A stretch of 37,519 bases of DNA, taken from Desulfurococcales archaeon. Lineage in GTDB: Archaea > Thermoproteota > Thermoprotei_A > Sulfolobales > NBVN01. The translations under genes and the position numbers were made by a program. Below, one piece after another: positions 2,468-25,334 of this stretch. Under the pieces are notes generated by a model. That model worked only from the letters and a program-made list of their open reading frames with translations. It searched no databases and was not told where the DNA came from. Positions within the stretch are counted from its first letter, which is position 1, and the number at the start of each line of letters is the position of its first letter. The stretch is from assembly GCA_027083115.1 (NCBI GenBank), contig JALWQN010000144.1, positions 1 through 37,519 on the forward strand, read 5' to 3'.

Positions 2468-3758
2468 GCTTCTCCTCCCTCAAGCCATCATCTATTAAGA
2501 CCTTCATGGAGTTTCTTGCCCCAGCAGAAATTGCTTCCTGACATACCCTATCAGCCACTGATGTTGAGGGCGCTAAAGAAATCAGTGTTCCTCCCAGACC
2601 CGCACCAGAAAGCTTACATCCGTAAGCTCCAGCACTGATTGAGGCCTGGCAAATCACTTCTAGCTCCGGCATTGAGAGGTCATAAAGGTCGCGAAGCAAA
2701 TGATGTTGGTAATTCATTATTAACCCTATTAGGGCTAATTTATTGTCTGCAGCTCCTAAGGCTTTATTAATAGATTCCCTCCACTCTTCACCCAAGAAAC
2801 TCAGTAACTCGGTGTAAGCGGGTTCATATCCCTTAATTATTTTGAGGGCTAGCTTGGTCGAGATGTTATTCAGGATTGTGAAGAGTATTCTTCTCCTGTA
2901 AATTTCCTGAATTCTGTTGAGGTAAGGAGTTATCTCTTCCAGACCTATTTCCTCCCACTTTACTTCATCAATACGTTCAGATAACTTTGTTTTAAGGGAT
3001 TCAGGCAAGTCATTCATTGCTAGGAGGCTCCTTAAGCCTGAAGAAAGCTCCTTCTGCCTTACTGGATGTATGTCTGCAGTGCTGTGCTTTATTCCCGAAT
3101 CTATGGCTAGGAAAACCCCATTAATCCAAGGAAGTTCCTCAACCCTGTAGGGAGGCTTTGTCTCTATCTTTATGATTCCACCGAAGGCAGAACCGTATTG
3201 GTCAAGCCTACCGCAAGGTATCCCCATTATGTCATGTTCAGCCCTATACGCTAGCTCAGCAACGTCTTTCTTACTTAATCCTGCATTAAGTAATGCGTTT
3301 AGGCCTCCAATAAAGGAAACTGTTAATGCTGCGCTGCTTGCTAAGCCGCCGGCTATGGGTACTTCACTACATATTAGTGCTTCGAAAGCAGGAACTTCAA
3401 AGCCAGCATTCTTGAGGGCAATGATGGAGGCCCTTAAGTAATTACCGAACCATCTCCCCTTAAGTAAGGAAGGCTCCTTCAGCCTAAATTCATCACGGTA
3501 TTCTTCTCCAAGGAGCTTAAGGTTTAATGACTGGATGACGGCCTTATCCCCTAAGGATTTTCTGAAGGCCGCGTAAGTCCTTAGGTTAATCCCTACCGAA
3601 ACTACTGGAAGTCCCTTATAGTCCTGGTGAGTGTTCAGGAAATCAAGCCTTCCAGGAGAACTCACAATTAATTCAGGCTCTGACCCGTATAGATTGATGA
3701 ACTCATTAATTAGATCATCAACCACCTTAGCTTTCCCCTCACTTCCCAATGCACCCAC
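2460..3758 (-). CDS. galK: Galactokinase (GHMP kinase family)
   Basis: The protein is 432 aa. GRLDFLNTHQDY resembles the galactokinase signature GR(V)NLIGEHTDY. The GHMP ATP-binding motif is PIAGGLASSAAL. Its start overlaps the galT stop by 20 nt. Confidence 0.85.
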   Translation of the reverse strand: MGALGSEGKAKVVDDLINEFINLYGSEPELIVSSPGRLDFLNTHQDYKGLPVVSVGINLRTYAAFRKSLGDKAVIQSLNLKLLGEEYRDEFRLKEPSLLKGRWFGNYLRASIIALKNAGFEVPAFEALICSEVPIAGGLASSAALTVSFIGGLNALLNAGLSKKDVAELAYRAEHDIMGIPCGRLDQYGSAFGGIIKIETKPPYRVEELPWINGVFLAIDSGIKHSTADIHPVRQKELSSGLRSLLAMNDLPESLKTKLSERIDEVKWEEIGLEEITPYLNRIQEIYRRRILFTILNNISTKLALKIIKGYEPAYTELLSFLGEEWRESINKALGAADNKLALIGLIMNYQHHLLRDLYDLSMPELEVICQASISAGAYGCKLSGAGLGGTLISLAPSTSVADRVCQEAISAGARNSMKVLIDDGLREEKLT

Positions 3759-4761
3759 CTAATGCGTTAATTCTTGAGACTCCTTTACTGCAGGCATTCC
3801 TTAATTCATCCCTCTTAGTTTCAGGGTTCCCATCGTAAGTGAAGACCCAGAAACCCGTTTCTGCACCAGCTCTATACTTCAGTTTATCGGGTTCCCTGTA
3901 GGGCTGATAGAACTCTATATGGAAGTGGTAGTAGCTGTATTCTCCTCCATCACTGGGTTTGTTATGCATAACCATAATGTAAGGCATTTCCCTATTAAAT
4001 AGGTTCTCGTATGTTACTGTCGCGACCCTTAACGCGTCAGCTAAGTCAGTGACTTCATCCCTATTGAGGAAGTCAATGCTTGTTATGTGCCTTCTCGGAT
4101 AAACATGCAGTTCGTAGGGCCACATAGCATAGTAGGGATGGATAATGATGAATGAGTTATTAACGTAAATTATTCTTTTATTTAAGCTTAATTCCTTATC
4201 CATGATGTCGCAAAGGAGGCATTTGCCGGCCTTCTCATAATATTCTCTGAAGTTCCTTAGTTCGACCTGAATTCTTGGAGGAATGAAGGGAAGGGCATAT
4301 ATTTGGCTGTGTGGATGAGTTAATGATACACCTATTTCCTTACCCTTATTTCTGAATATGGCTACGTACTTCACGAAATCTATTGATGAGAGCCTGACGT
4401 ACTCTTTAATGAAGGTTCTCACAACCTTAGCCAGGTGCTCTAACTCAATATTATGGAGGTCTCCCTGATGCTTAGGTGTCTCAACAACGACCTCACAATA
4501 ACCTCTTGCAGCCATATTTCTATATATGGGTGGTTCTGGAGGCTCGGGTTCCTCAGGATTAGGGATTAACGCAGGGTATTTGTTAGGTAATGTAAGAACA
4601 TCCCAATCGCCGTAAGGGGCTGTCTCAGGGGATCCGGGGCAGAAAGGACATCCTTCTCCAGCGGTGGAGGGCCTCCATGGCCGCTTAGCTCTTTGGCCCG
4701 CAACAATTATCCAGTGGCCTAAAAGAGGGTTCCAGCGGAGCTCATTTATCAAATCACCCAA
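3739..4761 (-). CDS. galT: Galactose-1-phosphate uridylyltransferase (class I GalT, HIT superfamily)
   Basis: The protein is 340 aa. It has the N-terminal ELRWNPLLGHW motif, the CPFCPG zinc motif and the HPHSQ (HxHxQ) active site. The start in the ORF track is a TTG. Confidence 0.88.
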   Translation of the reverse strand: MGDLINELRWNPLLGHWIIVAGQRAKRPWRPSTAGEGCPFCPGSPETAPYGDWDVLTLPNKYPALIPNPEEPEPPEPPIYRNMAARGYCEVVVETPKHQGDLHNIELEHLAKVVRTFIKEYVRLSSIDFVKYVAIFRNKGKEIGVSLTHPHSQIYALPFIPPRIQVELRNFREYYEKAGKCLLCDIMDKELSLNKRIIYVNNSFIIIHPYYAMWPYELHVYPRRHITSIDFLNRDEVTDLADALRVATVTYENLFNREMPYIMVMHNKPSDGGEYSYYHFHIEFYQPYREPDKLKYRAGAETGFWVFTYDGNPETKRDELRNACSKGVSRINALGGCIGK

Positions 4762-4935
4762 ACACCAACACCCTCTATAAACCTTCTTTTAAAGTTTTAA
4801 GCAGTGTTAGGAATTCTTATTCATTTGCCTTAAAACCATAGTAAATATTTATTTCAAAAACCACGGTGGAGATACCACTAACTAAGCTTAGCCATTGATT
4901 CCATGTTTATTTGTTGCAGGATTTTAATTAGGATA

Positions 4936-5628
4936 TTAAGGCTTAGTCGGCCACCATACGTGGCCGTGACAATGTCCTACGGTATTTCCCCACGCCTTAT
5001 ATACTGTTGCTTGCTTAGGTAGTAAAACATTTATTTCAGTGCTTACGTTGTTTAGGGTGCCTACCCAGTATAGGCCATGATTGGTCTCATTAAAGTGGTT
5101 CTCAATAAAATCAAGCCCTAAGGGAGTGAGTAACCAAAGGAAATCAGCGTATTTTTCGTTACCACTTAACCATACTTTACCAGATACCGCAAACACTATT
5201 TTTATCGTGTTGTTGGGGTAGACGCTTATGCTTAGGTTAGTTATATTAATGCCGCTATAAGTTCTCATGATTTCATTAGTTATTTTTTCTTTAAGTGCCT
5301 TGATTGTTTGTGTGGTTAGGGAAGGTTTGGAATAATACCTCCATTCCGTGTACGTTATTATTGAATCCTTTATTGATGTAGTGATTACTCTCTTCATAAG
5401 AGAGAAAGACACTGCAGTTACTACGGTAGTTGTTGTGTTAGGTGAGGGAGTCATTAATGTTGTTGTCGTTGGGGACAATGTTGTTGCGGATGCTGTAGAG
5501 GGTTTCGGGAGTATAGTGCTTGTTTTGCTTTCAGATTCTTTAGGGGTATGGAAGTAAGTTAGGGTACCTCCAGCGACTGCTAACACAATTAAGATAATCA
5601 ATAACGTAATTAGTAGGGACTGCTTCAC
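4936..5628 (-). CDS. Membrane-anchored extracellular protein with a Thr/Ser/Pro-rich stalk (hypothetical)
   Basis: The protein is 230 aa. It has an N-terminal TM helix (LLITLLIILIVLAVAGG) and a T/S/P-rich stretch (KTSTILPKPSTASATTLSPTTTTLMTPSPNTTTTV, about 5407-5529). It has many N-x-S/T sequons (NIT, NLS, NNT, NET, NVS). The C-terminus is GHCHGHVWWP. I recognise no family. Confidence 0.6.
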   Translation of the reverse strand: MKQSLLITLLIILIVLAVAGGTLTYFHTPKESESKTSTILPKPSTASATTLSPTTTTLMTPSPNTTTTVVTAVSFSLMKRVITTSIKDSIITYTEWRYYSKPSLTTQTIKALKEKITNEIMRTYSGINITNLSISVYPNNTIKIVFAVSGKVWLSGNEKYADFLWLLTPLGLDFIENHFNETNHGLYWVGTLNNVSTEINVLLPKQATVYKAWGNTVGHCHGHVWWPTKP

Positions 5629-5724
5629 TAATTGCTTCCCTCAGGATACTTGGGTTACGGGAAGAATAAAGTTTCAGAAGGTAATCACTAGGTAATGAGT
5701 TGTTAGCTTGTTTGACTTATGACG

Positions 5725-6468
5725 TCATATATTGGTGTTCGCGAGTGCTGCAGTTATCGCTAACGAAGTTACAATGAGTATAGAGCCAACGATTTTCTTC
5801 AAGGTTAATTTCTCATGAAGTATTTTCACGGTCATTACTTGCGTTAGCATGGGTGAGAGGGAGGTTGCTAGGGAAGGAATCATTACTCCTAAATACTGTA
5901 GTGATTCAGTGAACATTATGAATCCAAGGAAGTACGAAATAACTCCAGAGGTAGCGATAACGACTATGGCTTTCCTAGTAACGCTTAACCTCCCAAATCC
6001 TTTAGATAAGGGAAGGAGTATTGCTGCCAGCATAAGTACTCTGATGCCAGCCACCTGAGTGGGCGTTAGTGGGTAGTTATTAACTAGGTCGGAAACAAGG
6101 AGTGTGCTTATTGCCCAACTGAATGCAGCCAAATAAGATAGGGCGATACCTCCTACATTTTTCCTGAAGCCCTCCTCACTCACCATTAAGTACATGCCAA
6201 GCAAGGCAAGCGGAGTCAACCATATTGCTATGGCTCCCCTTAAGTCATGAAGGAATATGACGTTAAGGACTTGAGCTATCAGTATATACTGGTAGGTTAG
6301 CACTGTGGCAGGCCCTGCACCTAATTTATCTATTGCGAGTATGAAGGTAACATCGCCTAAGCCAGGCCCAATAACGGCTGAAGCAAGGAGCAGGAGGAAG
6401 CTCTCTAAACTTAATTCGCCAGCACCCCATAAGGAAAGAACAGGCGCATAAATGAGGGAAGCAAACAA
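5725..6468 (-). CDS. DMT/EamA-family transporter (N-terminus uncertain; the frame stays open up to 6606)
   Basis: The protein is very hydrophobic, with multiple TM helices and a two-EamA-like organisation. The track start is a TTG. The frame is open for 46 further codons upstream (RGSNLDQVLGLSYAVGAAVAFSTASVFIKVSLRDVRNPLLINGLRAL), which look like EamA TM1 but contain no ATG, GTG or TTG. Confidence 0.72.
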   Translation of the reverse strand: MFASLIYAPVLSLWGAGELSLESFLLLLASAVIGPGLGDVTFILAIDKLGAGPATVLTYQYILIAQVLNVIFLHDLRGAIAIWLTPLALLGMYLMVSEEGFRKNVGGIALSYLAAFSWAISTLLVSDLVNNYPLTPTQVAGIRVLMLAAILLPLSKGFGRLSVTRKAIVVIATSGVISYFLGFIMFTESLQYLGVMIPSLATSLSPMLTQVMTVKILHEKLTLKKIVGSILIVTSLAITAALANTNI

Positions 6469-6706
6469 AGCCCTTAAACCGTTAATGAGTAGAGGGTTTC
6501 TTACATCCCTTAATGATACCTTAATAAATACTGAGGCGGTTGAGAAAGCAACTGCTGCACCAACAGCGTAACTCAGACCGAGAACCTGATCCAGATTTGA
6601 GCCCCTCTAGCTAAGGCTTTAAAGATGCTCTTAAATTATTGCAGCAGTCAGTAAGTGATCACCTAATTTAACCTGATTTTCTAAGGATATTATTTGAGGG
6701 GACTTA

Positions 6707-7414
6707 ATGGTTAACATAAAAGAGTGGATCTCAGGTGAGAATCCAACGGAGAAAATGTATCTTCTGGAACCCTATGTTAGGGTGCTTCGTTCTAAACTAA
6801 TGGATTATGTGCGTGAAAGAAGCACTAAGTACTATATTATTCTTGATAAGTCGGTGTTTCACCCTAAGGGTGGGGGCCAGCCAAGTGATGTTGGTTGGTT
6901 AGTTGCTGATAGCTTAAGGTTTGAGGTCAGGAAAGTTATTGATGTGAATGGTGTTTTAGTTCATTACGGAAGGGTTATGGAGGGAAACATTCCGGAAATA
7001 GGTTCTGAGGTTAAGTCCCTCTTGGATTGGGACCGCCGGTATAGGGTCATGAGGATACATACTGCTGGGCATATAATAGATTATGCTATTTCTGAAGTTT
7101 ATGGGCACGTACTTAATACTTTAGGGGCTTTCCACGGTCCTCCTAACCCTTACGTGATTTACGAGGATTATCCACCATCAGTGAAGGAACTGAATCGGGT
7201 GGAGGAAATAGCTAACAAAGTAGTTAAGGAATCCTTACCTGTTAAAGCATTTTTCGTTGGTAGTGATGAGCTCAGGAATGGAGTAGTGGGGGCACCTAAC
7301 CTCAGTAGGTTACCTCAGGCCCGAGAATACAGGATCGTAAGCATTGAAGGAGTTAATGCGGTGCCTTGCACGGGCACACACGTAAGAAACACTGAGGAGG
7401 TAGGGAAGATCTAA
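6707..7414 (+). CDS. alaX: Alanyl-tRNA editing protein AlaX (AlaX-M type), apparently C-terminally truncated by a frameshift
   Basis: The zinc motifs HTAGHIID (HxxxH) and CTGTHV (CxxxH) of the tRNA_SAD editing domain are present. The N-terminal domain contains FHPKGGGQPSDVG. The more likely start is M17 (MYLLEPY, 6755). See the finding on the -1 frame continuation to 7473. Confidence 0.85.
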   Translation: MVNIKEWISGENPTEKMYLLEPYVRVLRSKLMDYVRERSTKYYIILDKSVFHPKGGGQPSDVGWLVADSLRFEVRKVIDVNGVLVHYGRVMEGNIPEIGSEVKSLLDWDRRYRVMRIHTAGHIIDYAISEVYGHVLNTLGAFHGPPNPYVIYEDYPPSVKELNRVEEIANKVVKESLPVKAFFVGSDELRNGVVGAPNLSRLPQAREYRIVSIEGVNAVPCTGTHVRNTEEVGKI

Positions 7415-12488: not shown

Positions 12489-14024
12489 CTAAATTATCCT
12501 TACGTTTATGTTGATTCCGTATTCGCTCTCTAGCTTCCTTAATTTCCTCCTTACTTTCTTTATGGCTCTCCTATCTTCCCTAGGCACTAAGATAGTTACG
12601 TTACTTCCCTCAATTCTTATTTCTGCTGCAGGAATTAGGTTAGAGAGTATTCTCTTTAGTCTGGATTCAAGGCCTGAGATCCCCACACCCTTGACAGGGA
12701 CAACTATTGTTTGCTCACCGAAGGTATATATCTCGTACTCTAGTTGGCCTGTTAGGAAGTCCCTAACCTCAATAACTGGTCTAGCCAGTTCTGCTTCCCT
12801 TAAGCCGGTAGGGAGTTTTACGGTCATGCTTAACTCGTAGACTTTACTGACTTGCCCCTCATCAATAAATATTACTGTGTCAATGACTGAAGGGATCATT
12901 CCGATGTCGATCCTGCCAATAAATCTTTGGATCGCATCAATAGGGGATGTTGCGTGTGTGACGCCAATCATCCCTATACCCGCTAGCCTGAGGTCGACAT
13001 ACAGCTTGAAGTCAAGGTCTGTCCGCATCTCGTCAAAGACCGTGTAGTCAGGTCTTGAGAGAAGCAGTATGTCATGGAGCTCATCCTCCGAAGCATACAC
13101 TTTAGAGTACTGGGTTATTTCTGGAGGTAGTCTTAAGTCCCTCGGTGACTCTACAGTCTTAATTATTTTGTTTTTGCTTAGGTAATATTGGGCTAGTGCT
13201 TGAGCGAATGTGGTCTTGCCGGCTCCGGGCGCGCCGGCTATCACTATTCCTTCAGCCCTTTCTTCCAGTCTCTTGATGAGTTTTTCTGGGAGCCCGTAGT
13301 CCTCAAGCCTTAGCTTAGCGATAGGTCTTACAGCAGTTATTTCCCATCCGTCGCTCATGGGTGGTCGAGTAATTATTATTCTGTAATCACCTAACTGAAC
13401 GATTGTTGACCCTAACCTATCCACCTCTATCATTCCGTCTGGTGATGTCCTCGCTGCCTCCATTACTTCATCAGTTATAGACTCTATTTCGTCCTTAGAT
13501 AGTGGGGTTTCACCTAAGTCCTCAAGAACCCAGTGACCCGGATATCCTTTCTTAGCTACTGGTTTAGCGCCTTCCTTCAGGTGGACAGACATTGTTGATT
13601 TATCGAAAAACCTCTCGAGCATAGATATGCCTGTCCTTGAAGGAGGTATGTATATTACGCTAATACCCATTGATTCAGCAGCTAATGCCTGAATCCTTGA
13701 TGAAGTAATTAATTTCCCAGAAACTTCTTGAGCATACCTAAGAACTAAGGTATCAGGATTGTCTCGGCCACCTCCCCTAACCACATCCACAGGTATTTCT
13801 CTGGTCTCGCAGGCAGCACGAATTAGTCGGAGCTCTTCTAAACCAAGCATGCCTGAGCTTCTTCCTTCCCTAGCTAATTCCGTGAACCTATCAATTATTT
13901 CACGCAGAAAAACTATCTTACCCCTTAACTTACCATCAACAACTAACCTCCTTAAAGTACCGTCCACGATCACACTGGTGTCAGGCACATACAGTTCCTC
14001 AAACCCGTAACTCTCTGTGCACAC
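12489..14024 (-). CDS. PIN-domain / PilT-like AAA ATPase / KH-domain protein (COG1855-type)
   Basis: The protein is 511 aa. It has an N-terminal PIN-like segment (YVPDTSVIVDG), Walker A (GAPGAGKTT), Walker B (YTVFDEMR) and a basic KH-like C-terminus. Confidence 0.8.
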   Translation of the reverse strand: MCTESYGFEELYVPDTSVIVDGTLRRLVVDGKLRGKIVFLREIIDRFTELAREGRSSGMLGLEELRLIRAACETREIPVDVVRGGGRDNPDTLVLRYAQEVSGKLITSSRIQALAAESMGISVIYIPPSRTGISMLERFFDKSTMSVHLKEGAKPVAKKGYPGHWVLEDLGETPLSKDEIESITDEVMEAARTSPDGMIEVDRLGSTIVQLGDYRIIITRPPMSDGWEITAVRPIAKLRLEDYGLPEKLIKRLEERAEGIVIAGAPGAGKTTFAQALAQYYLSKNKIIKTVESPRDLRLPPEITQYSKVYASEDELHDILLLSRPDYTVFDEMRTDLDFKLYVDLRLAGIGMIGVTHATSPIDAIQRFIGRIDIGMIPSVIDTVIFIDEGQVSKVYELSMTVKLPTGLREAELARPVIEVRDFLTGQLEYEIYTFGEQTIVVPVKGVGISGLESRLKRILSNLIPAAEIRIEGSNVTILVPREDRRAIKKVRRKLRKLESEYGININVRII

Positions 14025-16014: not shown

Positions 16015-16432
16015 TTTCGGTTAGGGCTTTGGGACTTATTAGGTAAATGAATAGGGTTCTTACCTTACTACGGAGTTCGGAAAGATGGGGCGGATATAGG
16101 TAAAGCGGTTTTTCCTCAGGTATTTTCAGCAGCTTAGAGATTAGCTTGATTGCGAGAGGGTCCTTAACTACTGCTGTTGTCTGCGTTAGTTGGGGTTGGA
16201 GCTCCAGATATATTGGTAGCTTTAGTTTGTCTCCCGACTCCTTAAGCACTTCCTTAGCTAGTTCGAGCTCCGACTTCCTGAACATGTGGATTCCACCATC
16301 TCTTGTCTGTACGTGAGGGTATTTCTCAGTGAGGAGGTCCTTAAGTTCCTTCCTCTCTCTAGGAATGTACTTGTTGACAACCCTTAATTCATCCTTAAGG
16401 AAATAATCTATTAATTCGTTTTCCTTACTCAT
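16010..16432 (-). CDS. UPF0216/DUF61-like protein, translationally coupled to atpD
   Basis: The protein is 140 aa. The pattern VNKYIPRERKELKDLL...PHVQTRDGGIHMFRKSELELAKEVL...LKLPIYLE resembles the archaeal UPF0216 family as I remember it. Its ATG overlaps the atpD stop (TAATG). Confidence 0.5.
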   Translation of the reverse strand: MSKENELIDYFLKDELRVVNKYIPRERKELKDLLTEKYPHVQTRDGGIHMFRKSELELAKEVLKESGDKLKLPIYLELQPQLTQTTAVVKDPLAIKLISKLLKIPEEKPLYLYPPHLSELRSKVRTLFIYLISPKALTET

Positions 16433-17067
16433 TAACTTACCTGCCTCCTTCTCTCAAGCATTTGCTTAACTTTCTTCATCCTTGTCTTATCCTCTCTTTC
16501 CCTTTCCTCAAACTTCATTGACAGGTACTTGATCGTTGCTTCAATCCTAGGTATCAATATGTTTTCGAGAGCATTAACTCTTCTCTTAACCCTGGAGACC
16601 TCACGACCTATTAACAGTATTGATGTCTCTATCTCAGCCAACTTAATTACGTTATCAATAACCTTATCATAGCACTTTCCTGCATCAATAAGGATTAGTG
16701 GGTACACGCTGGGGTCGTACTCACCTACTTTCCTGGAGACCTCAATGACTGGGGCCTTAACTCCAGCCACAACCCTAGTCCCCACAACGATCTTTGATTT
16801 CTCGAGTCTTGATGATGCGAAGGCATCAATCATTAAGGGGGTTGTCAGGAGTGAGGACTTATGTAGGGTTCTAGAGCACTTCTCTAGTTGGTCGTAGGTC
16901 TGCATACGTAAGGACATCCCTTCCCTAATTAAGGCAATTAGTTCTTGAGACAGAATAATGAGCCTGTCTTTAAGGACTTTATGAAGTCTCTTAGCTACCT
17001 TAATTCTTCTCTTAAGCCTTATGAGCTCTATCTTTGTTGGCCTTACCTTAAGAATTTGCTGAGACAC
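16432..17067 (-). CDS. atpD: A-type ATP synthase subunit D (central stalk)
   Basis: The protein is 211 aa. The N-terminus [28 protein letters not shown] is typical of subunit D. It is coiled-coil rich and sits after atpB. Confidence 0.9.
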
Positions 17068-18472
17068 TTACCGCACCCTTACCCCTGTATTTTGGGTGGT
17101 ACTTCCTTATTAGGTCGAGGCTTATTAACTTCAGTTCCTCCTCAGGCAATGTCGAAAGCAGTTCCCAACCTATATCGAGTGTTTCTTCTATCGTTCTTCT
17201 CTCATACTCTCCTTGATTAACGAATCTGCGCTCAAAGATATCAGCAAAATTAAGGAATTTCTTGTCTCTGTCAGTCAGGGATTCAGTACCTATTATGGCT
17301 GATAGCTCCCTAAGGTATTGGCCTTCAGTGTATGCAGCAATCAACTGCATGAAGACCGGATAATGATCTTCCCTTGTTTTCCCAGGTCCTACACCATCCT
17401 TCATGAGTCTAGATAGTGAAAGCAAAATATCTATTGGAGGGTAAACGCCTTTCCTATTCATGTCCCTAGAAAGAACAATCTGTCCTTCAGTAATGTATCC
17501 CGTTAAGTCAGGTATTGGGTGAGTGATGTCGTCATTAGGCATCGTTAAGATAGGCATCTGGGTGACCGACCCTTCCTTACCTTTGATCCTTCCTGCCCTC
17601 TCATATATTGTTGCTAGGTCAGTATACATGTAGCCCGGATAACCTCTTCTTCCCGGAACCTCCTCCCTGGCTGCTGAGAGTTCCCTAAGAGCTTCACAGT
17701 AGTTAGTCATGTCGGTCATCACGACAAGCACGTGCATGCCGTACTTCCAAGCAAGGAACTCAGCCGTAGTTAAAGCAACCCTAGGTATAGCTATCCTCTC
17801 AATAACTGGTGATGCTGCCGTATTTATGAATGAAACGACATTCTCAATGCTTCCAGCCTTCCTTAAGGACTCCATGAAGAAGTCGGCTTCCTCATAAGTA
17901 ACACCGATCGCTGCGAAAACCACAGCAAATTTCTCTTCCTTACCCTTAACTCTTGCTTGCCTAACTATCTGAGCAGCTATTCTGTTGTGGGGTAACCCAG
18001 CACCACTAAATATAGGTAGCTTCTGCCCCCTAACAATGGAGTAGAGCGCATCAATAGCTGAGATTCCTGTCTCTATGAATTCCGAGGGAGGCATTCTCTC
18101 TGCGGGATTTATGGGCGCACCATTAATATCCAGCCAGTCTTCAGGAACTATTTCTGGACCTCCATCAATAGGTCTCCCTAAACCATCGAAGACCCTCCCA
18201 AGCATATCCAGCGAGACTGGGAGCTTCAGCGTTTCACCCTTAAACCTCACGCCGACATTCCTGACGTTAACCTCACCCACACCGCCGAAGACCTGAATTA
18301 CCGCAACATCTTTAGAGACATCTATTACTTGACCGAGCCTTGATTCTCCTGAGCTGAGCGTGACCTCAACGACCTCATTATACTGTATACCGGGGATAGC
18401 CTCAACAAAAAGTAGTGAACCCTTAGCGCTTAATGCTCTCCTAACCTCCTTAACGCTCAGGGACTGAGTCAT
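17048..18472 (-). CDS. atpB: A-type ATP synthase subunit B (non-catalytic)
   Basis: The protein is 474 aa. Conserved blocks include [37 protein letters not shown] and [31 protein letters not shown]. Confidence 0.95.
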
Positions 18473-20748
18473 TCCTTACCACCCTTAACTAAGTTATTGA
18501 AGAAAGTGGAGGTTTCCTCCATGAGTGACTCGTAGCTCTCCCTGAACTTATTGGCCGGTATCTCCTTCATCCTAGCTATCTTGGCCCTCAGTGGTGATTG
18601 CCTTATTTTCTGTAGGGGCACTCCAGAAGATAGTGCTTTCGAGGCGTTATGGTAGAACTCCAGAATGACCTTAAGCATCATCACTGTTTTCTCGGGTGGG
18701 GAGTAGGCATCGATAGGGTGGAAGGCGTTCTGCTGGAGGAAGTCCTCCCTAATCATTCTGGCTGCATCCAGCAGAAGCTTGTCATCGTCAGGCAGAGCAT
18801 CAGGACCTACGAGCCTCACGATCTCCATCAACTCATTCTCTCTCTGGAGTATCTTCAGGGCTTCATTCCTTACTGACAGCCAGTCAGGGAATTGCTTCTT
18901 CCACCATTTCTCAACACTCTCAACATATAGGGAGTAGCTGAGTAACCAACTTACTGCAGGAAAGTGCCTCCTGTTAGCTAAGGATATATCTAAAGCAACT
19001 AAAGTACCTATATACCTTAGGGTGTTTTGAGTTACTGGCTCACTGAAGTCAGCTCCCGGCGGTGATACTGCACCCACAATAGTTAATGAGCCCTCCCTAG
19101 GAGGTTCACCCACACAATTAACTCTACCAGATCTCTCGTAGAACTCAGCTAGTCTGGAACCTAAGTAAGCAGGAAATCCTTCCTCTCCAGGCATTTCCTC
19201 AAGCCTAGCACTTATTTCCCTCATTGCTTCAGCCCACCTTGATGTTGAGTCAGCAACCATGAGGACGTCATAACCCATGTCCCTGAAGTACTCGCCTATT
19301 GTGACACCTAAGAAAACGCTAGTTTCCCTAGCTGCTACGGGCATGTTTGATGTGTTAGCTATAAAGACCGCCTTCTCAGCTAGTGGGCGACCAGACTTCG
19401 GGTCTTTAAGCTTAAGGAAGCTATGTAAGGCATCAGCCATTTCATTCCCTCTCTCCCCACAGCCAACGTAAATATTCAACTGGGTTCTTGCCCACTTAGT
19501 TAAGGTCTGTAATAGAACAGTATTATGGAAGATTACAGGGTCTACACCACCAACAAAGTTGTGTGTTTCAGGAACCACCAAGTCATAAACCATTGTGTCC
19601 TTATCTATAAGCTCAACGGACTCGATTTCGTCAGTAATCACTCCTTTAGGTATGCCTATGGCTGAGTCAAGGTCTCTAGGAACAATTAACGGCATTCCCG
19701 GCATTAGATCCATAGCCCTAATTTCATGTACTGCGTTATCTTTTCCGAGGACAGGGAGTTTATGGATTGGTGTGACCTCAATCAGTCTGCCTAAGGCTGT
19801 CTTAATTCTGGATACCTTGCTCGTGAACCCCCTGTAGATGTGGGTGGCTTCAACAGTCTTCAGTCTCTTACCGTCAAAACCTATGAGTGATAGGGGTTCC
19901 CTTAATTCATAGATTTCTTCAGGGATTTCGTGGACATGTCCTTCACCCTTAACTTCCTCAAATATTTCATCTATTTTCTTTTGTGAACCATCGCTCAGCA
20001 GCACTGGTGTGCCAGGCATTAAGCACTTGCCGCTTCCGAAACCTCCAGGAACAGCAGCCTTACCGCCCCTAGCTATGGGGAACATCATGTCCAGAACCCT
20101 AGTTCCAGTAATCAGCGGGTGAACCGGTTCAAGCCTATTGATGTATGGCCTGGGCTTCCTCACAGGCCATTTATGCATCATTCTTAGCTCCTTAAGCTTT
20201 CCTCCACCTAAATCAACAACAGCTATGGTGTCCTCTATGGTGTACTCTCCATCTGGAGCTAGCTCCTTTAAAGTCCCATGAATGCCTGGAGGAACCATTA
20301 TTTTGTGCTCCATAATCTGGGTCTCTTTAACGCTACCTAATAAAGTTCCAGGCTCAACTTTATCGCCAGGCCTAATACTGCTTGACTTAATGAAGCCCCA
20401 CTTAATGTCTCTAGGTAATGCCTCTACCTTCACGCCCTTCTCTATGAATGGGCCAATCAGCCCTCCAAGGACAGATAAAGGTCTCTGGAGGCCGTCGAAG
20501 ACCTTACCAACTATGCCTGGCCCTAACTCCGCGGAAAGAAGATTCCCTGTTCCTTCAACCGGCTCACCGACCCTAAGGCCTGAAGTGTCTTCATAAACCT
20601 GAATGAATGCCTTATCTTCCTGGAGACCGATGATTTCTCCAATGAGTCTTTCCTCACCAACGTGAACTACTTCGTACACCATAGATCCTTTCATATTTTC
20701 TGCAACTACCAGAGGGCCTGACACCCTCATTATTCTGCCCACCACCAT
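18469..20748 (-). CDS. atpA: A-type ATP synthase catalytic subunit A, intein-containing precursor
   Basis: The precursor is 759 aa, and the extein is 591 aa after removing residues 242-409. Walker A (GGFGSGK|T) is split by the insert. Downstream blocks are [33 protein letters not shown] and [22 protein letters not shown]. There is a 4-nt ATGA overlap with atpB. Confidence 0.95.
19522..20025 (-). mobile_element. Mini-intein (168 aa) inserted in the atpA P-loop
   Basis: Cys1 (TGC at 20025-20023) follows GSGK. Block A is [14 protein letters not shown] and block B is EVTPIHKLP (TxxH). Blocks F/G are [15 protein letters not shown]...VIFHN, with Asn at 19524-19522. The +1 residue is Thr (19521-19519). 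No LAGLIDADG or HNH block is visible. Confidence 0.9.
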
Positions 20749-20752
20749 CTGC

Positions 20753-21106
20753 CTACACCTCTATACTTAACCCGAGGTAAGCCCTAATTAAGGAGTTATA
20801 GTATTCCTTAATTTTAGATTTATCCAACCTTAATCCACCCGGTAAATAAATTATTAATGGTTGAGAGGAGGTTTTACGGAAGCCCTCAACATATTTCTTA
20901 AGGTTCTCCTCAATTATGACGATCCCTACCTTGTAATTCTCGAAGACTTTACCCACAACCTCCCTTACTTTAGCTTTAATCGTTTCATCAGTTTGTTCTT
21001 TTGTGTTGATTGTGAATGCTATGGTAGCCCCTCCTAACTTAAAGCCCTTAACGAAGTTCTCATCACCTATGACTGCTATGTCCTTCTCACTTAGTGAGTA
21101 AGTCAT
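20753..21106 (-). CDS. atpF: A-type ATP synthase subunit F
   Basis: The protein is 117 aa. IAVIGDENFVKGFKLGG is the typical subunit F N-terminus. It lies immediately upstream of atpA. Confidence 0.85.
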   Translation of the reverse strand: MTYSLSEKDIAVIGDENFVKGFKLGGATIAFTINTKEQTDETIKAKVREVVGKVFENYKVGIVIIEENLKKYVEGFRKTSSQPLIIYLPGGLRLDKSKIKEYYNSLIRAYLGLSIEV

Positions 21107-22058
21107 ACGTCCTCACCAACGTATCTATTACTTCCCTCAAGTAAGAACCTCCGTAACCGAGGTTTAAACTACCTAGTAAAAAAGCAATTAACTGTGTTTC
21201 CCAATCCTTCCAAATCAAGTACCTAAGGAGAGTTCCTTTAGAGAAGACCTGAGCTGAGAGAACGCTGTCACAGTAATTCACAACCGAAGACCTAAGCAAC
21301 ACCTCCAGCCTGAAATGTTTCTCTAAGTTATTCCTTACGGCATTCCTTTCTTTAGAAGTTAATTTACTCAATATTTTGTTGAGTGTTTCTGGGGAAGCTC
21401 CTCTCCTCACCAACTTCGATAACTCATCAATTATTTCCATATGGCTCAAGCAATCAGATAATCTCGTGTCTTCCGAACCAACCACACCCTTAAGGAGCTT
21501 GTAGTACTCGCGGATTGCCTCATCATATATCTTATATGGATTTAATTCGCTTATGGGCATTCCTGAGTATCTCCTCATCAGTTCCTTAAGCACTTCAGTA
21601 TCTTCTCTCCCAAGAGCGGATAAGTTGCTCAGCAAGTCATTAGTGCTTTTGGCATTCTTAACAGCTTCACTTATTGAACTCATTACTGGGTATTTAGTTA
21701 ATTCTGTCTTTTCATTAATTAAGGAATAAAAGAAAGCGTTAATCGTGTACTTATTCGTGAAGGCGTTAAATATCCTCACCAAGCTTTCGGAAGGCTGTAT
21801 TATTTCTATGTCTCTCCTTAGGTTATTCATCCAGCAGAGAAGAAGTCTCTCGTAAATTATGTCTTGTTTAGGCAGATTATCTAATCGTAAGTGACCTTGA
21901 ATACATTCTAACACGTTATAATTCGTTAGTGTTGAAGTGAGTTCTGAGGGCTTACTTAATTTTTGTCCTGCGAGCGTAGCTAATGACTTAAGGTTTAATG
22001 TCTTATCAATATATAACTTAATCTTTGATAAAAACTTTAGGTCATTTATTGAGCTCAT
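21087..22058 (-). CDS. atpC: A-type ATP synthase subunit C (V-type d homologue), divergent
   Basis: The protein is 323 aa and appears all-helical. The assignment rests mainly on its position between atpE and atpF in the canonical H-I-K-E-C-F-A-B-D order. It overlaps atpF by 20 nt. Confidence 0.62.
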   Translation of the reverse strand: MSSINDLKFLSKIKLYIDKTLNLKSLATLAGQKLSKPSELTSTLTNYNVLECIQGHLRLDNLPKQDIIYERLLLCWMNNLRRDIEIIQPSESLVRIFNAFTNKYTINAFFYSLINEKTELTKYPVMSSISEAVKNAKSTNDLLSNLSALGREDTEVLKELMRRYSGMPISELNPYKIYDEAIREYYKLLKGVVGSEDTRLSDCLSHMEIIDELSKLVRRGASPETLNKILSKLTSKERNAVRNNLEKHFRLEVLLRSSVVNYCDSVLSAQVFSKGTLLRYLIWKDWETQLIAFLLGSLNLGYGGSYLREVIDTLVRTYDLLTK

Positions 22059-22063
22059 TTGTC

Positions 22064-22660
22064 CTATCCCTTAAACACTTCTTTATCTACCTTACTGTAG
22101 AGTATGCTCAATGCTCTCTCAAGCCTTGTTGAGTAAGTGTTATCAACAACGAAGAAACCTTCAGGATCCATTATTAACACACCCCCTAGTCTGCTCTCAT
22201 CCAACGGCTCGATCTTGATGAGGCGGCTTGAGAGGCCTAAATCATCAACGACCTCCTTAAAAATTTCTTTGTCATTATCTAGGACTTCAGCAATGAAGGA
22301 TTCCTTTATGACCCCAGTGCTTAAAGCCTCATTCAGCAATTTCTTCAGTGACTCTTTCCTTACTTCCGGGGGTAGGTGAGTAAGCCCTTCCTTAGCTTCA
22401 TCGATAATTTCCTTAATGAGCTTCTGTTTTGTCTCAAGTAACTCCTTATTTAGTTCCATAACCCTTGATGCATACTTCCTGAATTCCTGAGCTCTTAATT
22501 CAGACAGTGCGGCTTCCTTCACGCGCTTGTATCTTCTCAGGTACTCTTCCTTAGCGCTCTCAACAATTTCTTTGGCCTTCCTTTCAGCATCCTCCCTAAT
22601 TTTCTTAGCCTTCTCCTCAGCTTTCCCTATTACCTTACTTCTTAGGTCGTTGATGCTCAC
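22064..22660 (-). CDS. atpE: A-type ATP synthase subunit E (peripheral stalk)
   Basis: The protein is 198 aa. It has a long charged N-terminal coiled coil (KAEEKAKKIREDAERKAKEIVESAKEEY) and a globular C-terminal domain (GGVLIMDPEG...VDNTYSTRLE). Confidence 0.82.
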   Translation of the reverse strand: MSINDLRSKVIGKAEEKAKKIREDAERKAKEIVESAKEEYLRRYKRVKEAALSELRAQEFRKYASRVMELNKELLETKQKLIKEIIDEAKEGLTHLPPEVRKESLKKLLNEALSTGVIKESFIAEVLDNDKEIFKEVVDDLGLSSRLIKIEPLDESRLGGVLIMDPEGFFVVDNTYSTRLERALSILYSKVDKEVFKG

Positions 22661-22678
22661 TTCAATAACCTCTTACCC

Positions 22679-23185
22679 TCAGATAGGGAGACCAACGACA
22701 GTCACTAACAGTAAGTACCCGAAAACCATTCCTAGAATGCCGAAGAGCTCAATATAGGACGCTAATATCATTGTTGGTGTCGCGACCCTACCCTTAGTTT
22801 TAGGTAATTCCACAATGCCTGACATACACACAGCTCCCTGATATATTGCTGAGTAAAGCTCCGCAAACATTACTCCGAAACCAATAACGAAGATCCCTGC
22901 CGCCTTACCCCAAGTCATTGCTGCAGCTATATTGGATGCCCCAACAATTGATGTGAAACCAAGTAACGTAAATATGAATCCGTAGAAAGTCTGAGTCATC
23001 GGCAGTGAGGAAAGAAGCAGAACCCACTTAAATGATGAGGGATCCTCGGCAAGAACTGAGAGTCCAGCACCAGCAGCCTTAGCGATCCCTATTGATGAAC
23101 CAACTAACCCACCAATTATGCCTAAGGCAACACCAGCAGATGCCAGCCATAACGGAGTTATTTGAAGAGCTGCGACCCCACTCAT
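22679..23185 (-). CDS. atpK: A-type ATP synthase proteolipid subunit K/c, duplicated 4-TM (16 kDa) form
   Basis: The protein is 168 aa with four hydrophobic helices. Hairpin 1 has SLPMTQTFYGF with no carboxylate. Hairpin 2 has YSAIYQGAV and ASYIELFGILG with a single Glu146. Confidence 0.9.
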   Translation of the reverse strand: MSGVAALQITPLWLASAGVALGIIGGLVGSSIGIAKAAGAGLSVLAEDPSSFKWVLLLSSLPMTQTFYGFIFTLLGFTSIVGASNIAAAMTWGKAAGIFVIGFGVMFAELYSAIYQGAVCMSGIVELPKTKGRVATPTMILASYIELFGILGMVFGYLLLVTVVGLPI

Positions 23186-23216
23186 TTTCTCTTACCTTTC
23201 TTATTGAAATGGTGGG

Positions 23217-23224
23217 ATTTTTAA
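23217..23224 (-). promoter_or_regulatory. Possible internal TATA box (TTAAAAAT) upstream of atpK
   Basis: The 127-nt atpI-atpK gap is the only sizeable gap in the operon. This A/T octamer sits 32-39 nt upstream of the atpK ATG. Confidence 0.3.
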
Positions 23225-23312
23225 GCTATACGATATAATTAGACGAGTCAAACTTTTAATTTAGTTATAGTAAAATTGTCTGCCACGAGTCTTGACAAAA
23301 GTGTTTGAGTTC

Positions 23313-25334
23313 TTAAACCCGTTTACCAATTATGATGTGCTTAGGTATTAATGCCTTAAAGGGCTTAAACTCTCTTCCTTCACCTTCATACCATTTTGGC
23401 AGAAACTCAACGAAGCAAAGCCTTAATGAGTGAACGAAAGCACCAATGACACCGAATATTATCGTTATTAAATTCATTGCAAGCATCACGAAACCTGCAC
23501 CGATTACGCCAACAACTATGCCGACTAGGGGAACCATCGCTGAAACTGATTGCGCTAAGCCTAAAGCAAGGGAATTAAAGCTTTTTGCCATCATGTAGGT
23601 CGCTAGCCCTAACCCAGCTAACCTAGAATACGATAAGGTATCACCTAAGAGGCCTGTGACACTAAAGATCCATAGAATTGCTCCTGCACCACCCCAGTTC
23701 TTGAATGTACCTAAAATTATTAGGGCTAGGCCTGCTAAAGAACTATACAGCAGTATCTCCCCTAAGAAGGGATTTATCGGGAATAGATCGTAGTGCATGG
23801 TTGCGTGAAGTATGTAAGGTATTCCGAAGGCTTCGCCGATGAAGATCCCTAACTCAACAAATAAGGTGCCTAAATTATGTTCCTTAATAGCTCTTGCGGC
23901 GGATATAGCGTGCCCTAAGTTTATATGTATTAGACCCACTATCAGTGCGTACTTTAAAAACCATATGGGGTCAGAAAACACTAGTAATGAGGGCACGACT
24001 TCACTGTTTCCAGGCATAGTGAAGGTCCAGCCAGTAGGTGTCTTAACTATTGAGAAACCTGCGAAGGAGTTGGAGAGAGCACCGAAAGTTATTGACGAAA
24101 TAGATAGGACAAGAAGTAATCTCTTAAGAGTTATGTAACCTTCGGAGTAGGGGTCATCTACTAAGCCTGAACGCTCTAGTACGTACTTTATTAACACAAA
24201 CATTAAGATACCGTAAATTACGTCGCCAAACATTGACCCGAAGAAAACCATGAATGAATACATAATGATGGGTGTCGGGTCCCATTCATTGTAGGAAGGC
24301 ACACCATAAAGCTTGGTTATTAGTTCGAAAAGCTTAATCGTTCCAGAATTCTTGAGTTTGGAAGGAGGTTCTTTATCAGTACTTACTTCACTCACGAAGT
24401 AGGTTGATGCAGACTTTGAGAGAACCTCACCCAGCTTGAACACATCGCTGTTAGGAATCCAACCCTCAATGCCTGTTAAGTAATCCCCCATTGCGGCATT
24501 AAGTAAAGCATTAACTCTTTCCTCATAGACATCAGCCAGTACTTTAGCTACTGCAATTTCCGGCGCTGACTTCTGTAGCGATCGAGTAATGTGTTCCTTA
24601 AGCTTTATTGTTTGCTGCTCTAGTTCAGCAATTTCTTCCTTCAGCTTATTAATGAAGTCAGATACCTTAAGATCAACCTTAGGTAAGGATATTATTTCTG
24701 CCTTACGTGCTGACAGAATTTTCATAACTTCTTCTTTTGTAGGTAACATACCAGCTATGACTGCCACTACACCTTCATCTAACTCAGCACTAACTATGAT
24801 GAAGGCATCCTTAGGTAAGGAAGTTTCTAAGTTCAAGAAGGATGCCTTCCTAATGTACACAATGAGTGAATAAAGTAACTTACCTGTGAAAGTTAGGTTC
24901 TTCACCGCATAATTACCTACTTTCGGAAGCAAAGCAGTTAAGTAGTTAAGTATTCCTCTCTTAGCCATTAATTCCTCATTCAGTTTCTCTAGGTTTGCTG
25001 TGAGGTTCTTTAGCTCTCCATAAAGTTCCTTAATCTTAATTAATGATTTAGTTGTTTGCTCGTCTAAAGTCATTAGGTCAATTCCTTCCTTTAACTCTAT
25101 ATGGACAGGCTGCTGAAAGAATTTCTCCATGACGTCAACGGTGCTCTTAATTTCCTTAATAAGATTGAGTTTCTGAAGTAAGGCCTCCTTATCTTCCTCC
25201 TTAACCTTACCTAGTGGTTCTACATGGATTAGTCCTTCCTTCTGAAGTAACGACAGTATCTTATCTCTCTCATCCCTAAGGACCAAAACCCTAACGTAAG
25301 TTAGCCTCTCAGGAAGTGAGAGAAAGTAACCCAT
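23313..25334 (-). CDS. atpI: A-type ATP synthase subunit I (a-subunit, stator/ion channel)
   Basis: The protein is 673 aa. It has a soluble N-terminal half with coiled coils and a C-terminal polytopic domain. The conserved LSYSRLAGLGLA arginine motif is present. Confidence 0.9.
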   Translation of the reverse strand: MGYFLSLPERLTYVRVLVLRDERDKILSLLQKEGLIHVEPLGKVKEEDKEALLQKLNLIKEIKSTVDVMEKFFQQPVHIELKEGIDLMTLDEQTTKSLIKIKELYGELKNLTANLEKLNEELMAKRGILNYLTALLPKVGNYAVKNLTFTGKLLYSLIVYIRKASFLNLETSLPKDAFIIVSAELDEGVVAVIAGMLPTKEEVMKILSARKAEIISLPKVDLKVSDFINKLKEEIAELEQQTIKLKEHITRSLQKSAPEIAVAKVLADVYEERVNALLNAAMGDYLTGIEGWIPNSDVFKLGEVLSKSASTYFVSEVSTDKEPPSKLKNSGTIKLFELITKLYGVPSYNEWDPTPIIMYSFMVFFGSMFGDVIYGILMFVLIKYVLERSGLVDDPYSEGYITLKRLLLVLSISSITFGALSNSFAGFSIVKTPTGWTFTMPGNSEVVPSLLVFSDPIWFLKYALIVGLIHINLGHAISAARAIKEHNLGTLFVELGIFIGEAFGIPYILHATMHYDLFPINPFLGEILLYSSLAGLALIILGTFKNWGGAGAILWIFSVTGLLGDTLSYSRLAGLGLATYMMAKSFNSLALGLAQSVSAMVPLVGIVVGVIGAGFVMLAMNLITIIFGVIGAFVHSLRLCFVEFLPKWYEGEGREFKPFKALIPKHIIIGKRV

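Follow-up and report, generated by a model that had tools for sequence, protein, structure and literature searches.

Why should the atpA gene of an uncultured, Desulfurococcales-like crenarchaeon encode a catalytic A subunit of 759 amino acids, when the A subunits of intein-free relatives are 583–596 residues long? The gene lies in an A-type ATP synthase operon on a contig of 37,519 nucleotides (JALWQN010000144.1; "the window" below means this whole stretch), and the excess is accounted for by a single in-frame insert of 168 residues that splits the nucleotide-binding Walker A loop (P-loop) of the subunit. With a confidence of roughly 90%, we propose that this insert is a splicing-competent class-1 mini-intein of the VMA-b type, which arose from a LAGLIDADG intein of ∼540 residues by a deletion of ∼370 residues and has since been a vertically transmitted, non-mobile passenger of atpA.

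The insert in the P-loop of AtpA

The complete atpA product matches the four Pfam families expected of an A subunit (ATP-synt_ab_N, ATP-synt_ab_Xtn, ATP-synt_ab and ATP-synt_VA_C) together with Intein_splicing, and scores 825.7 bits against the NCBIfam model PRK04192 (cut-off 470). The insert separates Lys241 from Thr410 in the Walker A loop (GGFGSGK/C...N/TVLLQ, with slashes marking the junctions), and excising it in silico restores an uninterrupted GGFGSGKT, which agrees with the consensus GxxGxGKT, in a product of 591 residues. This excised product is 86% identical, with no gaps, to the 591-residue, intein-free AtpA of L001, the closest species-representative genome that we found (Desulfurococcales metagenome-assembled genome (MAG) S013_73; atpA at 3278..5053 of WAKQ01000005.1), and over the 40 residues around the splice junction the two proteins are 100% identical. 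The precursor has a computed mass of 84.1 kDa, of which the intein makes up 18.6 kDa; the spliced product would weigh 65.5 kDa. A first-pass annotation, made from the sequence alone, had given the insert exactly these limits and had predicted the restored P-loop, a length of about 590 residues for intein-free A subunits, and masses of ∼84 and ∼66 kDa before and after splicing, all of which agree with the present results. It had also noticed that the insertion site of the yeast VMA1 intein, IYVG/CGERGNEM, is intact 20 residues downstream, and we find that site unoccupied.

The profile and structure searches identify the insert as an intein, as the same annotation had called it. It matches Pfam Intein_splicing (PF14890; E = 1.4e-16, 61.1 bits against a cut-off of 35.8), the models for the N-terminal (TIGR01445; 47.8 bits, cut-off 24.5) and C-terminal (TIGR01443; 17.3 bits, cut-off 15.6) splicing regions, and, at 4e-20, NCBIfam PRK14698, which describes intein-containing V-type subunits A. 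The closest solved structures by sequence are the VMA inteins of Thermococcus litoralis and Pyrococcus horikoshii (7qss, 7qsu and 7qst; E from 1.6e-21 to 8e-20), followed by the VMA mini-intein of Thermoplasma volcanium (TvoVMA, 4o1s; 4e-16), which aligns over its full length. An AlphaFold2 model built from a 54-sequence alignment forms a single domain with a mean predicted local distance difference test score (pLDDT) of 94 and a predicted template-modelling score (pTM) of 0.88; the pLDDT falls to 76–88 only at the linker (residues ∼119–128) and at residues 21–40. When this model was compared with the PDB using Foldseek, 67 structures matched at E≤0.001, the top match being TvoVMA (4o1s; TM 0.85, root-mean-square deviation 2.8 Å) and the next ones other archaeal mini-inteins, and the best 50 of the 67 are all inteins, Hedgehog-autoprocessing domains or intein-like HINT domains. 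The model and its matches predict a HINT horseshoe fold for the insert.

The residues that carry out splicing are also in place. All 14 alignment columns that are invariant across the 54 family sequences are retained in the window intein, including C1, T85, H88, D148, H167 and N168, and the elements singled out by the first-pass annotation (Cys1, the TPIH block, the terminal HN and a Thr at +1) are each present; within TPIH it is Thr85 and His88 that are invariant in the family. At the C-terminal junction (FHN/T) the Thr is both the last residue of the P-loop and the second-step nucleophile, and Thr occupies the +1 position in every one of the 60 inteins that could be delimited at the P-loop site. 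A non-intein insertion was considered and rejected, and the profile scores argue against a chance match. We conclude that, as judged from its sequence, the insert is a genuine class-1 intein, and that its K/T insertion point and its homology to VMA-b inteins make it a VMA-b (vma-1b) allele. The P-loop site of archaeal A subunits is the one named VMA-b and described for Pyrococcus and Thermococcus, the yeast site being VMA-a (PMC8966425), and the first-pass annotation was right to equate the site with VMA-b of Pyrococcus.

Neither LAGLIDADG, HNH nor any other nuclease family was found in the insert by Pfam even at E≤1, PF14890 being the sole match, and PF14528 and PF14527 are absent from the window AtpA, unlike the related A subunits P0003–P0011. 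By these searches the element is a mini-intein with no homing endonuclease, as first annotated, and since it has no nuclease it is presumably not mobile by homing.

Origin of the nuclease-less form

A search with full-length AtpA revealed that inteins at exactly this position are common in uncultured Thermoprotei, Desulfurococcales and Sulfolobales, and that they occur also in Hadarchaeales, MSBL1, Odinarchaeia, Promethearchaeota and Thermococcales. Inteins at the P-loop site are usually 400–550 residues long and have LAGLIDADG domains. Dozens of A subunits from Thermoprotei, Desulfurococcales and Sulfolobales MAGs in public databases carry an intein at precisely this site, examples being RLG78365.1 (Thermoprotei MAG, P0004 cluster) and MCD6323508.1 (Desulfurococcales MAG, identical to P0054). 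These entries bear on the suggestion of the first-pass annotation that VMA inteins had not been described from crenarchaea. That suggestion stands for the literature to the extent that a search, which did not take in the main survey of vma-1b distribution, found no paper describing them, and in a 2015 survey the V-ATPase A inteins were all placed under "Euryarchaeota, Other Archaea" (PMC4760082). It does not stand for the databases, where in addition to these dozens one unannotated contig has the same mini-intein. Because crenarchaeal inteins at this site are already public, the claim of novelty is weak and, on the annotation's own terms, largely falls.

How the short form relates to the long ones can be seen from their alignment. 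In a BLASTP comparison with the 540-residue intein of P0003 (A subunit gene at 6001..9399 of L082, JBPKTM010000018.1), residues 1–121 of the mini-intein align to residues 1–121 and residues 119–168 to residues 491–540; over these two parts its identity to the 540-residue inteins of P0003 and P0054 is 58–72%. The two HINT halves are thus bridged by ∼10 residues in the window intein, compared with ∼370 in its full-length relatives, and the nuclease region that fills this space is homologous throughout the family; its LAGLIDADG blocks include columns that are almost invariant in the 54-sequence alignment. Since the mini-intein aligns to both ends of the 540-residue inteins, it is most likely a deletion derivative of a LAGLIDADG intein of about that size, and its short linker would be the scar of the deletion. 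A similar deletion has been engineered: removal of residues 123–335 from the P. horikoshii intein (PhoVMA) leaves a 165-residue intein that splices in cis (PMC8966425), and the natural boundary (∼residue 121) and size (168 residues) nearly match those of the engineered version.

The same 168-residue intein is present in a second sequence, L081, a hydrothermal-vent metagenome contig from ENA (ERZ940688, k127_1188039; atpA at 5038..7317). Its atpA is 2280 nucleotides long and aligns without gaps to the window gene at 76% nucleotide identity. In neighbour-joining trees, which also provide the comparison of intein and host phylogenies proposed by the first-pass annotation, the window and L081 are sisters both for the HINT domain (100/100 bootstrap replicates) and for the exteins (99/100), which suggests that the deletion predates their split and that inheritance has been vertical since. 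A search of the intein for a compositional anomaly that might mark recent transfer, using overall and third-position G+C content (GC and GC3) against the window, found none: the GC of the intein is 0.438 and its GC3 0.423, compared with a GC of 0.435 for the whole window, so that the intein bears no mark of recent import. JGI metagenome contigs were scanned twice, with the intein and with a two-sequence alignment, and neither scan turned up a relative, which leaves L081 as the only second copy; a word-indexed homologue search with the 168-residue intein alone returned a single match, a 174-residue fragment.

Among A subunits whose exteins are at least 82% identical, the site may be empty (L001/P0012, P0013 and P0014), filled by a 540-residue nuclease-bearing intein (P0003, P0004 and P0054) or filled by the mini-intein (the window and L081). 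That empty, full-length and mini alleles occur side by side in these uncultured Desulfurococcales and Thermoprotei is what the homing cycle, as set out in work on inteins (PMC8966425), would predict. Mini-inteins at the P-loop site are not confined to this group, as a search of representatives showed at least one further case in an unrelated A subunit of 753 residues (P0128).

Splicing, selection and persistence

All the residues observed are compatible with the canonical class-1 pathway. If the intein acts by it, the 84-kDa precursor could not form its Walker A loop and, because the insert splits that loop, would be inactive as an ATPase. Cys1, aided by Thr85 and His88, would undergo an N-to-S acyl shift; the hydroxyl of Thr+1 would attack the resulting thioester to give a branched ester; Asn168, aided by His167 and by Asp148 and His155 of block F, would cyclise and release the intein; and an O-to-N shift would then link Lys241 to Thr410, yielding GGFGSGKT in an active subunit of 65.5 kDa. 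Splicing would therefore be obligatory for function, which would place the HINT domain under selection. With its site occupied, the window allele would escape cutting by the nucleases that related full-length inteins encode, and removing the element would take either a precise deletion or recombination with an empty allele, which would explain its persistence.

The comparison of the window with L081 bears on this expectation. For the intein the proportions of nonsynonymous (pN) and synonymous (pS) differences are 0.22 and 0.77 (ratio ∼0.28), compared with 0.086 and 0.65 for the N-extein (∼0.13) and 0.053 and 0.70 for the C-extein (∼0.08), all from this one pair, whose silent sites have reached saturation. 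Purifying selection acts on the intein, but less strongly than on the exteins.

Several points weigh against the account given here, of a deletion-derived intein that still splices and is passed on vertically. Just two sequences with this mini-intein are known, so that the estimate of selection comes from one pair with saturated silent sites. The second of them, L081, reads TAA at intein codon 46 (codon 287 of atpA), which is a Ser codon (TCA) in the window; this in-frame stop causes gene callers to split L081 atpA into open reading frames (ORFs) of 286 and 438 residues. The stop may reflect a fault of assembly, variation within the population or a true pseudogene; the remainder of the gene is gapless and conserved. 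The splicing activity of the window intein is itself a prediction from its residues and model. Copy number of atpA was viewed within the 37.5-kb window, and a second, intein-free copy elsewhere in the genome is possible. Finally, in the neighbour-joining tree of the HINT domain the window and L081 nest among nuclease-bearing inteins with modest support (61/100, with an inner node at 39/100); the case for a change from full-length to mini, rather than the reverse, would therefore depend chiefly on parsimony and on how widespread the nuclease-bearing forms are.

The nuclease-less intein might have been kept for a benefit, either as a conditional switch (responding to temperature, pH or energy state) that gates maturation of the ATP synthase, or as a shield that occupies the site and protects atpA from the active homing nucleases of sister lineages; we regard this pair of ideas as very unlikely. 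Regulation taken alone, with temperature, pH or another signal controlling splicing, would be a function added to the vertical inheritance that we propose rather than a replacement for it. The position in the P-loop does make activity strictly dependent on splicing, the intein has been retained vertically without a nuclease and under purifying selection over a deep divergence, and the tendency of inteins to cluster at P-loops has been put forward as a hint of function (PMC4760082). However, the intein has no specific sensor feature, Cys1 is its sole Cys and so no disulfide trap within the intein is possible, an essential host gene would in any case place splicing competence under purifying selection, and close relatives do well without any intein. 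A conditional regulatory intein therefore seems to us very unlikely.

We consider it equally improbable that the mini-intein is the ancestral form and that the 500–540-residue inteins of its relatives reflect a later invasion by a LAGLIDADG gene. This order of events can draw on the weakly resolved position of the window and L081 in the HINT tree (39–61/100) and on the fact that the family's inteins must have acquired a nuclease at least once. Nuclease-bearing forms at this site, however, span Thermoprotei, Thermococcales, Hadarchaeales, MSBL1, Odinarchaeia and Promethearchaeota, and in all of these groups the nuclease blocks are homologous and interrupt the HINT domain at one and the same point, whereas the mini form is confined to one small terminal clade whose nearest HINT relatives (58–62% identity) are all nuclease-bearing. 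This distribution favours loss of the nuclease from a full-length intein.

Still less credible is a decayed relic that no longer splices, in an atpA copy that is a pseudogene or is backed up elsewhere in the genome. The in-frame TAA in the sole other copy would fit such decay, and some inteins splice less well once their nuclease domain has been artificially removed (PMC8966425). Every catalytic residue that is invariant in the family is nevertheless intact in the window, the frame of 2280 nucleotides is open, the HINT model is highly confident, the gene sits within a complete and compact operon, and the ratios of pN to pS in intein and exteins have stayed low across a divergence that saturated silent sites; together these points argue against a relic. 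An assembly or annotation artefact, such as a chimeric contig or a mis-joined gene, might be suspected of a protein found on one contig in the collection and apparently from an uncultured organism, but it is effectively refuted by the independent L081 contig, which has the same architecture with no indel at 76% nucleotide identity, and by a continuous frame whose junctions fall exactly at the canonical K/C and N/T.

Operon setting and known inteins

The intein-bearing gene is part of a complete A-type ATP synthase operon (Table 1) in the order I, c/K, E, C-like ORF, F, A, B, D, which is kept in L081, L082 and L001. Between atpE and atpF, where subunit C of an A-ATPase is expected, stands a 323-residue ORF that has no Pfam match at E≤0.001; counterparts of 315–327 residues hold the same position in L001, L081 and L082, and the ORF is probably a divergent subunit C. 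The c/K (proteolipid) subunit appears to be a duplicated, four-helix c subunit with an obvious carboxylate motif (SYIELFG) in its last hairpin only, and homologues of 161–168 residues are found in the same place in L081, L082 and L001.

Table 1. Coordinates of the atpA gene, its intein and the surrounding operon in the window.
Feature	Position	Strand	Details and basis
atpA, A-type ATP synthase catalytic subunit A precursor including the intein	18469..20748	-	ORF, 759 aa, 84.1 kDa
N-extein, aa 1-241, ending in GGFGSGK, the first seven Walker A residues (20026..20046)	20026..20748	-	translation; gapless match to L001
Mini-intein, HINT domain only, 168 aa, precursor residues 242-409, 18.6 kDa	19522..20025	-	hidden Markov model, PDB sequence and fold matches
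C-extein, aa 410-759 and stop, beginning at Thr+1 (act, 19519..19521)	18469..19521	-	translation
Block A, Cys1 codon (tgc), first-step nucleophile, sole Cys of the intein	20023..20025	-	invariant in 54-sequence alignment
Block B, T-P-I-H, intein Thr85..His88	19762..19773	-	Thr85 and His88 invariant in family alignment
Short linker, intein ∼119-128, putative deletion scar	19642..19671	-	full-length relatives have ∼370 aa of linker and LAGLIDADG nuclease at this point
Block F, intein 146-160, including Asp148 and His155	19546..19590	-	Val146, Asp148, Phe157, Gly159 and Gly160 invariant; His155 and Asn156 nearly invariant
Block G, His167-Asn168 (codons cat and aat); the intein would be freed when the terminal Asn cyclises	19522..19527	-	invariant in family alignment
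VMA-a (yeast PI-SceI type) site IYVG/CGERGNEM, unoccupied, 20 residues downstream of Thr+1	19438..19473	-	translation; site name from PMC8966425
A-type ATP synthase operon, complete	16432..25334	-	Pfam assignments
atpI	23313..25334	-	operon
c/K (proteolipid) subunit, 168 aa	22679..23185	-	operon; two Pfam ATP-synt_C stretches
atpE	22064..22660	-	operon
C-like ORF, 323 aa	21087..22058	-	between atpE and atpF
atpF	20753..21106	-	operon
atpB	17048..18472	-	operon, after atpA
atpD	16432..17067	-	operon, last

Downstream of the operon, an ORF on the same strand (12489..14024) encodes a 511-residue P-loop ATPase with weak matches to T2SSE and nSTAND3; since its syntenic counterpart in L082 is annotated with Pfam PINA_C, we take it to be a PINA-like ATPase. 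A scan of the whole window for RNA families and tRNAs found only tRNA-Gly(CCC) and tRNA-His(GTG), which are unrelated to the intein. A subunits that are 56–66% identical to the window C-extein were also found on contigs binned as Dehalococcoidia/Chloroflexota, Chlamydiae, Bacillota and Deltaproteobacteria (L003–L009, L012, L024 and L026, among others), and these could be bacterial A/V-type ATPase operons or binning contamination.

The locus is a clear but fairly ordinary case of an already known intein type, and no open question is resolved by it. What it adds to the VMA-b family is a natural, probably hyperthermophilic mini-intein of 168 residues with Thr at +1. A subunits that share at least 82% identity include all three stages, empty, nuclease-bearing and nuclease-less, and the group thus offers a compact, natural example of how inteins decay in the phylum Crenarchaeota, for which the 2015 survey gave no V-ATPase inteins. 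For protein engineering the intein is a possible thermostable splicing module, and its natural deletion boundary is close to one chosen by structure-guided design.

Among known systems, the VMA1 intein of Saccharomyces cerevisiae (PI-SceI) resembles the window intein in being a class-1 intein with Cys1 in a homologous catalytic A subunit. It differs in its site (VMA-a, G/CGERGNEM, 20 residues downstream), its length of 454 residues, its active nuclease and its Cys rather than Thr at +1, and it is absent from the significant PDB sequence matches of the window intein. The inteins of P. horikoshii and T. litoralis (7qst, 7qss and 7qsu) share the VMA-b P-loop site, but they are euryarchaeal, are 376–429 residues long and have an active or degenerate LAGLIDADG nuclease together with an accessory DNA-binding domain; their HINT part is ∼40% identical to the window intein. 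Much closer are the 500–540-residue inteins of Thermoprotei, Desulfurococcales and Sulfolobales MAGs (P0003, P0054 and RLG78365.1), which have the same insertion point, exteins that are 82–88% identical and HINT domains that are 58–62% identical, and which share with the window the flanking motifs CV/LxPGTPVLL (the slash here denoting V or L) and THNFxGGxxPxIxHN/T; unlike the window intein, they have kept ∼370 residues of linker and nuclease (Pfam LAGLIDADG_3; motif LLGLIISDG). The nearest parallel in form is TvoVMA (4o1s), likewise a mini-intein that naturally has no nuclease and is similar in size (170-residue chain), in an archaeal ATP synthase A subunit, which we take to occupy the VMA-b site as well. 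TvoVMA comes from a different phylum, however, and is just 30–34% identical to the window intein, far below the 58–62% shared with the nuclease-bearing crenarchaeal inteins, and this contrast suggests that the nuclease was lost independently in the two lineages.

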